64,000 bases of DNA. Origin: Enterobacteria phage GiZh. Location: the sequence record NC_054903.1; one strand, 5' to 3'. Positions within the stretch are counted from its first letter, which is position 1. Each line of letters opens with the position of its first letter. A model generated the notes under the pieces. The model made no database searches. It was not told where the DNA came from and saw only the letters and a list, made by a program, of their open reading frames with translations. A program made the position numbers and the translations under genes. Of this stretch, positions 1-64,000 are shown piece after piece.

Positions 1-476
1 TCAAAAGGACAGAATTCTCTTCACGATTATTCCAAAGCTGCTCATAAAGACCAATACCAGAGATTTTACCATTAATGCTTTTATATTCAATGTATCCAAT
101 ATCATTTGCTTTATTTAAAGCTTTATCTAAAGAATACGTTTTACCAATACCTGCTGCGCCGGAGATAATTAATGAACGAATATTTCCATTAATAATACCA
201 TTCGTCATCATTCCCATAACATTAAATCTTTTATTAATGCGGGTTTTCATATCTTCATATGATTCTTTAACTTCTTCAACTTTTACACCATCATATGAAA
301 TATCTGATTTGTAAACCCAAACACCGCGACGTTTACCGTCAATTTCAACAAAAACTTTACCATCTCCTTGTGCATCTACCGGAGCATTATCTGGGAACCA
401 TTCGCCTAAGAGCTCAAAAGTTCCAGAGATTTCTTTACCGAAGTAGATACCCTTATTGATAGTTACAGTTTTCATT
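1..476 (-). CDS. P-loop NTPase (partial; C-terminal part lies beyond window start)
   Basis: Minus-strand ORF from ATG at 476 (MKTVTINKGIYFGK...), Walker A-like IISGAAGIGKTYSL, still open at position 1. Confidence 0.55.
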
Positions 477-499
477 TTATTCTCCAAATCCGTATCAGT

Positions 500-556
500 T
501 GATAGTTGTATAGTACCATAAAGCTTTATGCTTGTAAACCGTTTTGTGAAAAATTT
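500..556 (-). promoter_or_regulatory. early-promoter/stem-loop cassette (PeSL-like)
   Basis: Minus sense GTTTAC (forward gtaaac 535-540), about 18-nt spacer, GGTACTATAC -10-like; near-identical copy at 15758-15815. Confidence 0.5.
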
Positions 557-561
557 TTGAA

Positions 562-590
562 ATAAAAAAAAAGGGAGCCCGAAGGCTCCC
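562..590 (-). terminator. intrinsic terminator
   Basis: Hairpin GGGAGCC-CGAA-GGCTCCC (573-590) followed on the minus strand by a 9-U run. Confidence 0.7.
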
Positions 591-592
591 TA

Positions 593-1606
593 TCATTTAT
601 AATAACTTCGGTGGTTTTCAAGATAGACCTTCTCAAGGAAGTCATCCCAGAAACTCATGTCTACTGTTTTAGGCATACCGTTCTTAGAAGCTTCAGTAGA
701 TGCTGCTTCTACTTGATCGACCACATCTTCCAAAAACTCTTGAACTGTTTTAAATGGATGTTTACCCAACTTCACGTCGAGAATAAATGGAGCATCTTGA
801 AGTGGATAGACTAAGTCACCAGTTTTGTAAATTTCCAATAGTTGGAGTCCACCACGACAAGCATGACTCAAAGCTTTCCAGTCAATACCTTCATTGGCTT
901 CGGCCTTACGAGCACGTTCACCATATTCAGCATCTAATTTGTTCAGTGACTGCTTAAGCTCAATAAGAGAAAGCGTTGTCTGATATTTACGACCCAACAC
1001 AGTGTAGAACGTTTGTGGGCCTGTTTTCTCATGATTATGGAACACCCATTCACAGAATTCGTTTTCTGGAAGACGATGCTTAATATCTTCAACTTTAGTG
1101 CGACGCTGCTTAATAGAACCATCTTCTTGGTAATCAATCCACTGCTCAGGGATTTGATTAACTACTTTCAATACATCACGTAATGCAGCCAAACGAGAAC
1201 CTTTGACACCGTATTTAGAAGCTTGCTTGCGGACATATCCTAAATATGATTTCATGTTAGTCGTATAAAAACGAGAACGGTTGTCTTGAATAAACTTCCA
1301 CACATCAGGCAAATCAGATTTAACCACTAGTTCAGGTGGAGTGTGAAGCATATCTAATGCTACGGTTTCACCATCTGCTGCTAATTTAAAGAAATATTTA
1401 AGACTGTATAGTTCATGGTCAATATCATCTTTAGTGTTTTTAGATGATGTGTTGTTAGTGTTTTTACTCATATGCTCTTTAACATTTCCGATAAGAATAT
1501 CGCGAGCAGGAGGAACAAAGATTTCTTTAAAATCTACATCAGATTCTGGAGTAGAAGTTCCATAAAGATGACTACCAAAATAGCTTTTCATTACTGTTTT
1601 CATCAT
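593..1606 (-). CDS. nucleotidyltransferase-fold protein (pol-beta superfamily signature)
   Basis: 337 aa ORF; N-terminal YFGSHLYGTSTPESDVDF fits the G[GS]-x(9-13)-Dh[DE]h NTase motif; later acidic residue in VALDMLH. Confidence 0.6.
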   Translation of the reverse strand: MMKTVMKSYFGSHLYGTSTPESDVDFKEIFVPPARDILIGNVKEHMSKNTNNTSSKNTKDDIDHELYSLKYFFKLAADGETVALDMLHTPPELVVKSDLPDVWKFIQDNRSRFYTTNMKSYLGYVRKQASKYGVKGSRLAALRDVLKVVNQIPEQWIDYQEDGSIKQRRTKVEDIKHRLPENEFCEWVFHNHEKTGPQTFYTVLGRKYQTTLSLIELKQSLNKLDAEYGERARKAEANEGIDWKALSHACRGGLQLLEIYKTGDLVYPLQDAPFILDVKLGKHPFKTVQEFLEDVVDQVEAASTEASKNGMPKTVDMSFWDDFLEKVYLENHRSYYK

Positions 1607-2064
1607 TCAGCCTTATATTCAATAACAGGACATACTTTAGCTTTACGCGCTTTTAAAAATTCGACGATAACCGATTTCTTGGGTTGAATAGGAGGTAAAC
1701 CTTTATACGCCCTATCAATATTTTCTACGTGTAAAGCATAATCCTTTTTCCATTTATAATCTTTATATTTTTCACGCAAATGTGCAGGAATAACAAATGA
1801 ACCGATAATAAGTAAAACAACCAAAAGCGCAAGTATAAATGCCGATGGAAGAAGAGTCCATAAACTACCGAAAATAAGCCAACGTTGTAGGCTTTCTGCA
1901 CAAATAATTGTTAGCCCTACGAGTATAGCACATCCAAAAATAGAAACGAAAAATGTAGGAATGGCAATAGACCAAAAATATGCGCATAGTGTCTTAGGTC
2001 GTTGCCATTCATCGTTAAACAATTTGAATAATTTATAATGCCAAGAGTTTTCATTAATAATCAT
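1603..2064 (-). CDS. hypothetical membrane protein
   Basis: 153 aa ORF with hydrophobic helices; 4-nt overlap with downstream gene suggests coupling. Confidence 0.5.
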   Translation of the reverse strand: MIINENSWHYKLFKLFNDEWQRPKTLCAYFWSIAIPTFFVSIFGCAILVGLTIICAESLQRWLIFGSLWTLLPSAFILALLVVLLIIGSFVIPAHLREKYKDYKWKKDYALHVENIDRAYKGLPPIQPKKSVIVEFLKARKAKVCPVIEYKAE

Positions 2065-2066
2065 AA

Positions 2067-2588
2067 TTATCCTTTCATTGAAGGTGTAACAGTTGTTAAA
2101 TACTTAATCATAGCCTCAGCTTCTGATTTTGATAGTGAAATTTCTTCACCGTTTTGGCGAATAGAAACAAAATCTGGATGACGATCACCACCAGCTTTTA
2201 AAACACACATATAAGTATCAGCTTCGCCTTCAATATTTGAAATGATTGAAGCAGTTCCACACGAATGTGGTTTTTGATAAATCAATACAGCTTTTCTTCC
2301 ACCATTTGACTGTTCATAGGCTTTTAATACATCAAACAAATCAGTTCTTTTATCAATAGCTAAAATGTTATTTTCATCTTCAATGTTAAATCCTTCGGAT
2401 ACTTCATAAAGCGTTACCCATAAATCACCAATGTCAATAACAGCATTTACTTTTCCACGGCTTTCAAGAGTATGACAAATTTTCTTGATTTCGTCATAAC
2501 TCATTTTAATAATATCATCTCCTTGAATAAGAAAGATGTCATTTTTAAATTCAACACGAATTAAACCACTTTCACTTGAAATAAACAT
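2067..2588 (-). CDS. hypothetical protein, member of a tandem paralog family
   Basis: 173 aa ORF; C-terminus EAEAMIKYLTTVTPSM resembles that of the next ORF. Confidence 0.5.
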   Translation of the reverse strand: MFISSESGLIRVEFKNDIFLIQGDDIIKMSYDEIKKICHTLESRGKVNAVIDIGDLWVTLYEVSEGFNIEDENNILAIDKRTDLFDVLKAYEQSNGGRKAVLIYQKPHSCGTASIISNIEGEADTYMCVLKAGGDRHPDFVSIRQNGEEISLSKSEAEAMIKYLTTVTPSMKG

Positions 2589-2594
2589 ATTTCC

Positions 2595-2906
2595 TCACTT
2601 TGAAATCATAGTTGGAATGACAGAATCAAGATAAGTCTTTAGTGCAATAGCTTCGTCTTTGGTAAATGTGACAATATGTGCTCGAGAATCATCATTTTGG
2701 CGAACAAGTACGACATCGCCATCTTCATAAGAAGTCTTGACATCCAAAGTCGTAGTATAGTTTGCAGCTACTGGATTAATAATGTTAGCACCGCGATCTT
2801 TAGCCCATTGAAGTTTAGCCTTTTCGGGTGTTTCGGCTGTTTCAGATTCTAAGAATTCTTTCACCTTGGCAACGAATGTTGCCCAATTGTTGATAGAAAG
2901 ACACAT
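2595..2906 (-). CDS. hypothetical protein, tandem paralog (start placed at internal Met MCLSINNW)
   Basis: ORF 2595..2966 in track; start trimmed to avoid 56-nt overlap; C-terminus DEAIALKTYLDSVIPTM. Confidence 0.45.
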   Translation of the reverse strand: MCLSINNWATFVAKVKEFLESETAETPEKAKLQWAKDRGANIINPVAANYTTTLDVKTSYEDGDVVLVRQNDDSRAHIVTFTKDEAIALKTYLDSVIPTMISK

Positions 2907-2910
2907 AAAT

Positions 2911-3150
2911 TCAGTTTCNAATATTACCGCCGTAAAGGCCACGATAAAAACGAACTTGGAGGTCACCTGTAATATTAGTTACACCGGTAACTCCTGAGGG
3001 AGCATAAGATAAAATCGCAGCCAGTTCCATAGGAAGAATAGTAATACTATCGTCTTCCTGCGTCAGAACGTATACATTACCGCGTTTTTCGATAACTAGG
3101 TCACCGAACAAATCAGTTGTTTCAATTACAGCTTTCATATTATTTACCAA
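2911..3150 (-). CDS. hypothetical small protein, tandem paralog; contains ambiguous base
   Basis: 79 aa ORF; motif QEDDSITILPMELAAILSY resembles neighbours; N at 2920 gives one X codon. Confidence 0.4.
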   Translation of the reverse strand: MVNNMKAVIETTDLFGDLVIEKRGNVYVLTQEDDSITILPMELAAILSYAPSGVTGVTNITGDLQVRFYRGLYGGNIXN

Positions 3151-16830: not shown

Positions 16831-16906
16831 TGGTCGAGGCAGTAGGGATCGAACCTACGACCTAGGACTTAGAAGGTCCTTGCTCTTCCTTCTGAGCTAT
16901 GCCTCG
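16831..16906 (-). tRNA. tRNA-Arg (anticodon UCU)
   Basis: Hand-folded cloverleaf: acceptor CGAGGCA/TGCCTCG, loop CTTCTAA, T-arm GTAGGTTCGATCCCTAC, encoded CCA. Confidence 0.75.
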
Positions 16907-16910
16907 GATT

Positions 16911-16985
16911 TGGCGGACGTGATAGGATTCGAACCTATAACCAATCGCTTAACAGGCGATCGCTCTGCCATTGAGCTACACATCC
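16911..16985 (-). tRNA. tRNA-Asn (anticodon GUU)
   Basis: Acceptor GGATGTG/CACGTCC (one G-U), anticodon loop CTGTTAA, T-loop TTCGAAT, CCA. Confidence 0.7.
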
Positions 16986-16989
16986 AAAT

Positions 16990-17076
16990 TGGTGGGGAGT
17001 GATGGAGTCGAACCACCCGAGTCGCAATGACAATGGATTTACAGTCCACACCGCTACCTCTACGGGATAACTCCCC
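16990..17076 (-). tRNA. tRNA-Tyr (anticodon GUA), long variable arm
   Basis: Acceptor GGGGAGT/ACTCCCC, anticodon loop CTGTAAA, 87 nt, CCA. Confidence 0.7.
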
Positions 17077-17088
17077 TAATTCATAATT

Positions 17089-17163
17089 TGGTGGCCCTGG
17101 GTGGAATTGAACCACCATCTGGCGATTATGAGTCGCTTGCTTGAACCTTCCAGCTACAGGGCC
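17089..17163 (-). tRNA. tRNA with CAU anticodon (Ile2-like)
   Basis: Acceptor GGCCCTG/CAGGGCC; anticodon arm GCGACTCATAATCGC resembles tRNA-Ile(LAU); CCA. Confidence 0.7.
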
Positions 17164-17164
17164 T

Positions 17165-17240
17165 TGGTGCTGATTGACGGAATCGAACCGCCGACCTTCT
17201 CATTACAAGTGAGTTGCTCTACCTACTGAGCTAAATCAGC
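17165..17240 (-). tRNA. tRNA-Thr (anticodon UGU)
   Basis: Acceptor GCTGATT/AATCAGC, anticodon loop CTTGTAA, T-loop TTCGATT, CCA. Confidence 0.75.
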
Positions 17241-17245
17241 AAAAC

Positions 17246-17335
17246 TGGCGGAGGCGATAGGATTTGAACCTATGAGTCGCCGGAGCGACTGCCGGTTTTC
17301 AAGACCGGTGCATTAAACCACTCTGCCACGCCTCC
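17246..17335 (-). tRNA. tRNA-Ser (anticodon UGA), long variable arm
   Basis: Acceptor GGAGGCG/CGCCTCC, anticodon stem-loop CCGGT-CTTGAAA-ACCGG, 90 nt, CCA. Confidence 0.75.
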
Positions 17336-17337
17336 AG

Positions 17338-17411
17338 TCTCCATACAAGGATTTGAACCTTGGACCTCCTGATCCCAAATCAGGCGCTCTACCAAACTGA
17401 GCTACACGGAG
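17338..17411 (-). tRNA. tRNA-Pro (anticodon UGG)
   Basis: Anticodon stem-loop CCTGA-TTTGGGA-TCAGG, T-arm CAAGGTTCAAATCCTTG; CCA not encoded. Confidence 0.7.
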
Positions 17412-17421
17412 TAAATTAAAT

Positions 17422-17495
<74 letters not shown>

Positions 17496-17500
17496 AAATT

Positions 17501-17587
17501 TGGTGCGAGAAGTGGGACTCGAACCCACAAGGAAATCATTCCGCAGCATTTTAAGTGCTGTACCTTTACCAATTTGACCATTCTCGC
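17501..17587 (-). tRNA. tRNA-Leu (anticodon UAA), long variable arm
   Basis: Acceptor GCGAGAA/TTCTCGC, anticodon stem-loop CAGCA-CTTAAAA-TGCTG, 87 nt, CCA. Confidence 0.75.
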
Positions 17588-17588
17588 G

Positions 17589-17661
17589 CTGGGAATAAAG
17601 GACTCGAACCTTTGCATCCTGGAATCAAAATCCAGTGCCTTACCAACTTGGCTAATTCCCA
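17589..17661 (-). tRNA. tRNA-Gln (anticodon UUG)
   Basis: Acceptor TGGGAAT/ATTCCCA, anticodon stem-loop CTGGA-TTTTGAT-TCCAG; 1 nt from tRNA-Leu. Confidence 0.7.
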
Positions 17662-62350: not shown

Positions 62351-64000
62351 AAAAGCCACAAGAAATGCAAACGATGCGTAGAAAAGTTATTTCAGATAAT
62401 AAACCAACACAGGAAGCGGCTAAATCCGCTTCCAACACTTTATCTGGACTTAATGATATATCTACGAAATTGGATGATGCTCAAGCTGCTTCTGAATTAA
62501 TAGCTCAAACTGTCGAAGAAAAATCGAATGAAATAGTTGGAGCAATTGGTAACGTAGAAAGCGCAGTGAGTGATACTACTGCTGGTTCTGAGTTAATTGC
62601 TGAAACTGTCGAAATTGGCAACAATATTAATAAAGAAATCGGTGAATCACTCGGAAGCAAATTAGATAAATTAACAAGTTTACTAGAGCAAAAAATCCAG
62701 ACAGCTGGAATTCAACAAACAGGAACTAGTTTAGCTACGGTTGAAAGCGCTATTCCCGTTAAAGTCGTTGAGGATGATACTGCTGAATCTGTGGGTCCTT
62801 TATTACCAGCTCCTGAAGCAGTTAATAATGATCCTGACGCTGATTTTTTCCCTACCCCTCAGCCAGTTGAGCCAAAGCAAGAATCACCAGAAGAAAAACA
62901 GAAAAAAGAAGCATTTAACTTAAAATTATCTCAAGCTTTAGATAAATTAACAAAGACAGTTGATTTTGGATTTAAGAAATCCATTTCAATTACTGATAAA
63001 ATATCAAGCATGCTATTTAAGTATACCGTCAGTGCTGCTATTGAAGCTGCTAAAATGACTGCAATGATATTGGCTGTTGTTGTTGGAATAGACCTGTTGA
63101 TGGTTCATTTTAAATACTGGTCAGATAAATTTTCAAAAGCCTGGGATTTATTTAATACTGACTTTACTAAATTCTCTAGCGAAACCGGAACATGGGGTCC
63201 TTTATTACAGAGCATCTTTGATTCTATTGATAAAATTAAACAACTTTGGGAAGCGGGAGATTGGGGTGGATTGACAGCAGCTATTGTTGAAGGACTCGGA
63301 AGTGTTCTTTTTAATTTAGGTGAACTTATTCAATTAGGTATGGCTAAATTATCTGCAGCAATTCTTCGAGTCATTCCTGGTATGAAGGATACTGCTGATG
63401 AAGTAGAAGGAAGAGCATTAGAAAATTTCCAAAATTCTACTGGAGCATCTCTCAATAAAGAAGACCAGGAAAAAGTTGCAAATTATCAAGATAAACGAAT
63501 GAATGGAGACCTTGGTCCGATAGCAAAAGGATTAGATAAAATTGCTAATTGGAAAACTCGTGCATCTAATTGGATTCGTGGGGTTGATAATAAAGAAGCA
63601 CTAACTACCGACGAAGAACGCGCAGCAGAAGAAGAAAAATTAAAGCAACTTTCACCTGAAGAAAGAAAAAATGCTTTAATGAAGGCTAATGAAGCCCGTG
63701 CCGCAATGATTCGCTTTGAAAAATATGCTGATTCAGCTGATATGAGTAAAGACTCAACGGTTAAATCTGTTGAATCTGCCTATGAAGACCTTAAAAAACG
63801 GATGGATGACCCGGATTTAAATAATTCACCGGCGGTTAAAAAAAAANTTGCTGCTAGATTTTNTTAAAANTNATGCTACTTATCAAAAGCTCAAGAAGAA
63901 NCAGCCTAATGCCAAANCTGAAANTTCTGCTAAAACGCCAGAAGCAAAANAAANCCAGGGAATAGAAAAAAAAAAAGCACAGCAAGCTCCTGTTCAACAA
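62347..64000 (+). CDS. 29: tail tube length determinant gp29 (partial; 3' end beyond window)
   Basis: ORF open to window end; track stops at 63867 only because of ambiguous bases. Confidence 0.85.

Follow-up and report, generated by a model that had tools for sequence, protein, structure and literature searches.

Predicted RlaP-family nucleotidyltransferase NrdC.11 and its neighbour NrdC.10, a predicted AAA+ ATPase, in the T4-like phage GiZh

The nrdC.11 locus of phage GiZh

The 64,000-nucleotide stretch of the Enterobacteria phage GiZh genome analysed here (the window; sequence record NC_054903.1) opens with a series of minus-strand features. An open reading frame of at most 337 codons at 593-1606 is followed, in the direction of transcription, by an intrinsic terminator (563-591), a promoter-like site (510-538) and the 5' 475 nucleotides of a second gene (1-475), which runs off the window edge. 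The window represents a segment of a Tequatrovirus (T4-like) genome, because the best megablast matches of its positions 1-2600 among 50,697 phage records are Kha5h, RB14, T6, AR1 and similar phages. Altogether 756 records match this region. Enterobacteria phage Kha5h is the closest, with 99.3% identity over the full length, and RB14, SHBML-50-1, wV7, AR1 and T6 show about 97-98% DNA identity.

In RB14, T6, AR1 and Kha5h, the two matching genes are labelled nrdC.11 and nrdC.10. The minus-strand transcription order in RB14 is RB32ORF097c (similar to mobD.1), RB32ORF096c ("replaces mobD"), nrdC.11 ("nucleotidyltransferase") and nrdC.10 (hypothetical). Kha5h exhibits the same order, with an annotated rho-independent terminator between nrdC.11 and nrdC.10. 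In T4, nrdC.11 occupies the same place between the mobD-region genes and nrdC.10. The sole contrast is that an RB32ORF096c-type membrane protein takes the position of mobD in GiZh, which is not a biological difference. Among the neighbours examined in positions 1-2588 of the window, there is no RNA ligase or kinase gene.

The product of the 593-1606 reading frame has 97.9-100% identity with the NrdC.11 proteins of RB14, Kha5h and SHBML-50-1 and 98% with the T2 cluster representative, and more than 400 phage records carry the protein at 97-99% identity. Judged by sequence, its T4 orthologue is NrdC.11, a 38.9-kDa product of the nrdC-mobD region. Translation probably starts at the second ATG (1603), yielding the 336-residue protein that is annotated in near-identical phages. 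Tequatrovirus records often annotate NrdC.11 as "nucleotidyltransferase" or "RNA repair pathway DNA polymerase beta family protein", and the label "RNA repair pathway DNA polymerase beta" appears in some recent phage records. The gene is located in the T4 early-gene region and is non-essential in T4-like phages. The nrdC.11-mobD.3 segment is among those found removable in a genome-reduction study of T4 (PMC9825161), and a 159,752-bp T4 record retains only NrdC.11 residues 299-337.

NrdC.11 and the RlaP family

An earlier note on this DNA, made from the letters alone, had proposed a pol-beta-type nucleotidyltransferase (NTase) on the strength of a GS-x10-DVD signature in this reading frame. Profile searches bear this assignment out. 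The Pfam family PF10127 ("RlaP, RNA repair pathway DNA polymerase beta family") matches NrdC.11 residues 7-135 with 43.9 bits against a curated gathering score of 23 (E = 3.1e-11), and the PHROGs profile phrog_388 "nucleotidyltransferase" matches with E = 7e-138. PF10127 is also matched by all of 40 diverse NrdC.11 homologues. An exhaustive HMMER scan of 1.84 billion cluster representatives returned 3,506 clusters at E ≤ 1e-3, 834 of them at E ≤ 1e-30; the family is therefore large. NCBIfam gives no match for NrdC.11, for NrdC.10 or for a canonical RlaP. No sequence relative of NrdC.11 was found in the PDB with either the single sequence or the 40-sequence profile, in a copy that evidently did not contain the PfRlaP structure. 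With CCA-adding enzymes, poly(A) polymerases, CD-NTases and OAS, NrdC.11 shares only the generic motif of the Pol-beta NTase superfamily, and no family-level sequence match to any of these was obtained with Pfam or PADLOC.

The N-terminus of the protein, FGSHLYGTSTPESDVDF, contains the predicted NTase catalytic signature: G11-S12, ten residues, then D23-V24-D25 (1532-1576, minus strand). We aligned 40 cluster representatives of 33-54% identity, in which G11, S12, D23, D25 and D63 (1418-1420, minus strand) are invariant. Because these five positions are invariant, we regard GS-x10-DVD as a conserved catalytic signature and not a chance occurrence. Comparison by hhalign of NrdC.11 residues 4-95 with canonical full-length RlaPs gives 88% probability (E = 3e-6) and places the GS, DxD and third-Asp positions in register. 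D63 aligns with the corresponding Asp of canonical RlaP and would be the third catalytic carboxylate, by analogy with PfRlaP, for which three conserved aspartates have been described (PMC12776372).

The similarity to the family model is limited to the N-terminal ~130 residues. The match covers profile positions 23-142 of 249, leaving the C-terminal 107 positions unmatched, and the C-terminal ~200 residues of NrdC.11 (~136-337) do not align with canonical RlaP (hhalign probability 0.5%). This half instead carries a clade-specific motif, DWKALSHACR (D242-R251; 854-883, minus strand), with the general form DWKAxSHAxR. K244, H248 and R251 are invariant in the 40-sequence alignment, of which at least 90% of the members also share D242, W243, A245 and A249. 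The crystal structure of PfRlaP shows a C-terminal helical domain that shapes the substrate cleft (PMC12776372). The AF2 model that we obtained for NrdC.11, from an 18-sequence alignment of 78-98% identity, has a pLDDT of 50.5 and a disordered NTase core and is unusable. The K-x3-H-x2-R pattern of the NrdC.11 clade is spaced similarly to K-x3-Y-x2-R, which is a resemblance only. Taken by its profile matches, NrdC.11 is classified as a divergent member of the RlaP family of Pol-beta-fold nucleotidyltransferases.

The name RlaP was given to PF10127 NTases by Burroughs & Aravind (2016), as they sit in RNA-ligase operons (PMC12776372). Two Pseudomonas RlaPs from cluster 1a of a sequence similarity network (SSN) attach one or two NMPs to the 3'-OH ends of RNA, prefer Mn2+ and do not act on DNA or protein (PMC12776372). 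Their preferred substrate is a mimic of broken tRNA, and they partly rescue the aminoacylation of a tRNA that lacks one anticodon-loop nucleotide (PMC12776372). RlaP has been proposed as an antidote to "smart" ribotoxins such as RloC (PMC12776372), a nuclease that excises the wobble nucleotide (PMC2610378); for jumbo phages, this prediction is also found in PMC7824862. The study of the Pseudomonas enzymes names T4 NrdC.11 as an RlaP, in SSN cluster 5 (Carruthers, Fatma & Huang, bioRxiv preprint, December 2025; PMC12776372). As early as 2006, a comparative paper reported a match of nrdC.11 to the nucleotidyltransferase COG3541 and a weak one of nrdC.10 to AAA ATPases.

NrdC.11 and the RlaPs of Pseudomonas fluorescens and P. 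aeruginosa thus belong to one Pfam family, with NrdC.11 above the curated cut-off, and have the GS/DxD/third-Asp catalytic core in common. They differ in sequence cluster (5 as opposed to 1a) and in length, NrdC.11 being about 70-80 residues longer. The K-x3-H-x2-R motif and the non-aligning C-terminal half distinguish the NrdC.11 clade from canonical RlaP, so that the clade departs from the assayed RlaPs in its whole C-terminal half.

RNA-repair neighbours of NrdC.11 relatives and a possible role in tRNA repair

Searching a set of prokaryotic genomes, one for each species, with the motif of the clade yielded 80 bacterial and archaeal loci with full-length NrdC.11-type proteins of 30-54% identity. 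We clustered the neighbouring reading frames and annotated the clusters with Pfam; antisense reading frames that had clustered as "conserved neighbours" were dropped as overlaps (shadow ORFs) of the query genes. An RNA-repair gene (RtcB, Pnkp, Hen1 or canonical RlaP) neighbours the NrdC.11-type gene in 29 of the 80 loci, and in the remaining 51 no gene recognised as an RNA-repair gene lies within 6 kb. In 23 loci the next gene downstream encodes a canonical full-length RlaP (PF10127, E = 4e-73). RtcB is present in eight, Hen1 in four and a Pnkp of the kinase-phosphatase-ligase type in three. Some of these operons are tightly packed with repair enzymes, in the order RtcB, NrdC.11-type, RlaP (L153), Hen1, Pnkp, NrdC.11-type, RlaP (L158) or RtcB, NrdC.11-type, RlaP, Hen1 (L115).

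The relatives of NrdC.11 hence sit, like RlaPs, in RtcB and Pnkp/Hen1 operons, and a function of the clade on RNA ends is supported because the clade is embedded in RNA-repair operons. The earlier note had also suggested that the enzyme might modify a nucleic-acid end. This part of its proposal fits, at the level of family biochemistry only, the addition of one or two NMPs to an RNA 3'-OH (PMC12776372). The tandem arrangement with canonical RlaP suggests that neither protein makes the other redundant and that their activities may differ.

T4-type phages encode Pnkp and RNA ligases elsewhere in the genome. We propose that the phage polynucleotide kinase/phosphatase (Pnkp) would first heal the ends of a broken RNA, giving a 3'-OH. 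The two-metal Pol-beta site of NrdC.11 (D23, D25, D63) could then extend this 3'-OH by one or a few untemplated nucleotides, and a phage 5'-phosphate RNA ligase (Rnl1 or Rnl2) would seal the product. The probable target would be a tRNA 5' half from which a host anticodon nuclease, for example RloC, has removed one or more nucleotides. Our data show the identity and family of NrdC.11, its catalytic residues, the genomic associations and the lack of linkage to nrdC.10; the substrate, the role in tRNA repair, the order and timing of the steps and the biological target are all inferred. Our preferred explanation as a whole, that NrdC.11 is an RlaP-type NTase that refills broken tRNA and NrdC.10 a separate ATPase, has in our estimate a probability of about 0.6.

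The main alternative, which we consider rather unlikely, is that NrdC.11 works as an NTase on RNA 3' ends but has another target, acting in the repair of tRNA 3'-CCA ends or in the tailing of host or phage RNA to steer decay. Characterised RlaPs label rRNA-, tRNA- and fragment-sized RNAs with little NTP specificity (PMC12776372), the C-terminal half with DWKAxSHAxR that is peculiar to the clade could change substrate choice, and the pairing with canonical RlaP in 23 loci argues for a non-identical job. The tight RtcB and Pnkp/Hen1 operons, on the other hand, point to the repair of breaks and not to tailing.

The clade, with its own C-terminal half and its frequent tandem position beside canonical RlaP in bacteria, may possibly form a functionally distinct RlaP subtype; we put this forward tentatively. 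Its C-terminal half might confer a specific task, for instance restoring the wobble nucleotide removed by RloC-type nucleases. If so, NrdC.11 would complete the classic T4 tRNA-repair pathway of Pnkp and Rnl1 as its missing third enzyme. For RlaPs in general such a proposal is already in the literature, and only this clade-specific twist would be new. NrdC.11 itself is already known, because it is a named T4 ORF, a nucleotidyltransferase in RefSeq and an RlaP in Pfam and is discussed in the 2025 preprint. As a discovery it therefore matters little, and its residual value is practical: T4-like phages offer a tractable system for testing RlaP-type enzymes against nucleotide-excising anticodon nucleases.

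It is improbable that NrdC.11 instead nucleotidylylates an acceptor other than RNA (a protein, a small molecule or a DNA end), in the manner of MNT/HEPN-type or antibiotic NTases. Such a reading draws on the fact that only the minimal NTase core is demonstrably common to NrdC.11 and RlaP and that no fold is assigned to the C-terminal 200 residues of NrdC.11. Against it, the Pseudomonas RlaPs left DNA and protein unmodified when tested, the bacterial neighbours are RNA-repair enzymes, and the conserved neighbour clusters include no HEPN or toxin partner.

NrdC.10 and the linkage of the two genes

The second gene begins with an ATG at 475-473 on the minus strand, preceded by a GGAG ribosome site, and encodes within the window residues 1-158 of a 322-residue protein; these span the N-terminal beta-domain and the first part of the predicted AAA+ ATPase domain. 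The earlier note had placed the partial gene at 1-476, a span whose translation contains 27 stops. Its Walker A motif, GAAGIGKT (G106-T113), is indeed present at 137-160 (minus strand), and G107, G110, G112 and K113 (alignment numbering) are invariant. The fragment matches phrog_1250 (PHROGs, E = 2e-66). We retrieved the complete gene as its RB14 orthologue, the 322-residue NrdC.10, which is 98.8% identical to T4 NrdC.10; beyond the window edge, the full-length RB14 protein has its Walker B motif (LLIDDVDV), and other invariant motifs are present as well.

The Pfam AAA matches of NrdC.10 are all weak and below threshold (AAA_14, E = 5.8e-5). An AF2 model of P0122, a protein 88% identical to the NrdC.10 orthologue, has a pLDDT of 88 and shows an N-terminal beta-domain of ~60 residues, an AAA+ core and a helical lid. 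Fold searches returned AAA+ ATPases only, in agreement with the P-loop NTPase of the earlier note; no close solved relative was found. On the basis of Walker A, Walker B and the modelled alpha/beta core with helical lid, NrdC.10 is predicted to be an AAA+ ATPase. Both genes of the pair thus correspond to named T4 ORFs. The earlier note had allowed that they might match T4 proteins of known, unrelated function; the match to named nrdC-mobD-region ORFs holds, but neither is an experimentally characterised T4 protein.

The earlier note had also put the two genes on one transcript, which the intergenic region makes doubtful. Downstream of nrdC.11, a terminator scan identified an intrinsic terminator, GGGAGCC-TTCG-GGCTCCC followed by T9, whose hairpin (591-572, coding strand) has a folding energy of -16.8 kcal/mol (z = -3.75) that is equalled in 0 of 200 shuffles. 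It is annotated in Kha5h as well and kept in the closest relatives. Between this terminator and nrdC.10 lies a promoter-like site with an extended TG, TTTACA-17-TACTAT, which matches the consensus at 9 of 12 positions and resembles the sigma-70/T4-early type. Evidence for this promoter is weak, because such sites are not above shuffled expectation in the region.

We consider it highly improbable that NrdC.11 and NrdC.10 form a co-transcribed two-gene module that acts jointly on a nucleotide or a nucleic-acid end. The genes are adjacent and co-oriented in GiZh, and in 39 of 79 viral NrdC.10 loci, NrdC.11 is encoded no more than 5 kb upstream. Early transcription in T4 often reads through terminators, which could allow some co-transcription. 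Besides the strong terminator and the promoter-like site, however, the wider distribution of the genes opposes such a module. The 39 linked loci all belong to closer T4-like and Acinetobacter T4-like phages, and in 35 of them the genes are separated by 300-2289 bp with one to five reading frames. The remaining viral NrdC.10 loci have no NTase in their flanks (tblastn and HMM searches within 5 kb).

The genes are unlinked in two phages outside the close T4 relatives. KVP40 has nrdC.11 at 88.9-90.0 kb (PMC3468402) and, ~62 kb away, its NrdC.10 homologue at about 151-152 kb; the positions in Aeromonas phage 44RR2.8t are 46.5 kb for NrdC.11 and roughly 158-159 kb for NrdC.10. Across the 50,697 phage records, NrdC.11 is found in 1503 and NrdC.10 in 1310, and the counts diverge by genus, with 285 against 149 records for Klebsiella and 55 against 121 for Vibrio. 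No NrdC.10-like reading frame occurs near the 80 bacterial NrdC.11-type genes. NrdC.10 itself is conserved widely, among T4-like phages and in some jumbo phages. Distant homologues of it occupy a DNA-metabolism neighbourhood: some lie between UvsX-like and UvsY-like genes and a DNA helicase gene, others between genes for RNR and topoisomerase II.

The adjacency of nrdC.11 and nrdC.10 reflects conserved gene order in Tevenvirinae-type genomes and not a two-component system, and NrdC.10 is best explained as a separate, probably separately promoted AAA+ ATPase. The earlier note is thereby partly supported: the observation was real, with small corrections of coordinates and strand, and its NTase fold and nucleic-acid end were right, while the pairing and the signalling kinship found no support.

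That NrdC.11 synthesises a signalling nucleotide, as a CD-NTase-, cGAS- or OAS-like enzyme, or acts as a decoy of such signalling, is scarcely credible: beyond the generic GS...DxD Pol-beta signature that favours it, no CD-NTase, SMODS or OAS family matches at E ≤ 0.1 in Pfam, the only other NTase match (NTP_transf_2, E = 0.096) falls below its cut-off, PADLOC, CBASS cyclases included, has no match at E ≤ 0.1 for NrdC.11 and none for NrdC.10, the family-specific match of NrdC.11 is to RlaP, and the bacterial context is one of RNA repair and not of effector genes.

Tandem RlaP-family genes in bacteria

Among the 80 bacterial and archaeal loci with full-length NrdC.11-type nucleotidyltransferase genes (L082-L161), 23 encode a canonical RlaP, matching PF10127 over its full length, directly 3' of the NrdC.11-type gene. 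The stop and start codons of the two genes often overlap, and the second RlaP is much shorter than the NrdC.11-type enzyme. Examples of this tandem arrangement are found at L153 (2956-4895), L158 (5992-7802) and L134 (6004-7777). The encoding of two subtypes in tandem suggests that their activities are non-redundant or cooperative. T4-like phages carry the NrdC.11 type alone in this window.

Genomic context of NrdC.10 and NrdC.11 in phages

Distant homologues of the AAA+ ATPase NrdC.10 (27-39% identity) occur at viral loci L055-L081 (for example L060, L064 and L067), in a conserved block that also encodes a UvsX-like recombinase, a UvsY-like mediator and a UvsW-like DNA helicase. In phage KVP40, the NrdC.10 homologue is flanked by genes for the small subunit of ribonucleotide reductase (RNR) and topoisomerase II. 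These neighbours hint at a role of NrdC.10 in DNA replication or recombination.

The interval between nrdC.11 and nrdC.10 is a variable insertion site, occupied in most T4-like genera by 1-5 additional ORFs spanning 300-2289 bp (seen at viral loci L004, L006, L008 and L010-L042). In the T4-like phage RB14, a seg-like endonuclease gene lies immediately downstream of nrdC.10. Where T4 has the homing-endonuclease gene mobD, upstream of nrdC.11, this phage instead has a gene encoding a predicted 153-residue membrane protein of the RB32ORF096c type (1603-2064, minus strand; phrog_944, "replaces mobD"), which adjoins a T4_y05I-type putative transcription factor gene (2067-2588, minus strand; PF24449 and PF24448).

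Many GenBank records name NrdC.11 and NrdC.10 orthologues "thioredoxin", a label evidently carried over from the nrdC gene name, while others call them "putative HNH homing endonuclease". Both designations, together with the labels on several small mobD.x ORFs, are annotation errors.

tRNA genes and sequence quality

Ten tRNA genes are clustered on the minus strand at 16831-17661 (Arg, Asn, Tyr, Met/Ile-CAT, Thr, Ser, Pro, Gly, Leu and Gln). T4 itself has eight tRNA genes and is not known to have any for Asn or Tyr.

Ten positions of the window are ambiguous (N), a matter of sequence quality, not biology. One, at 2919, falls inside ORFs at 2595-3150 and gives an X in their translations; the other nine are grouped near the 3' end (63847-63954).
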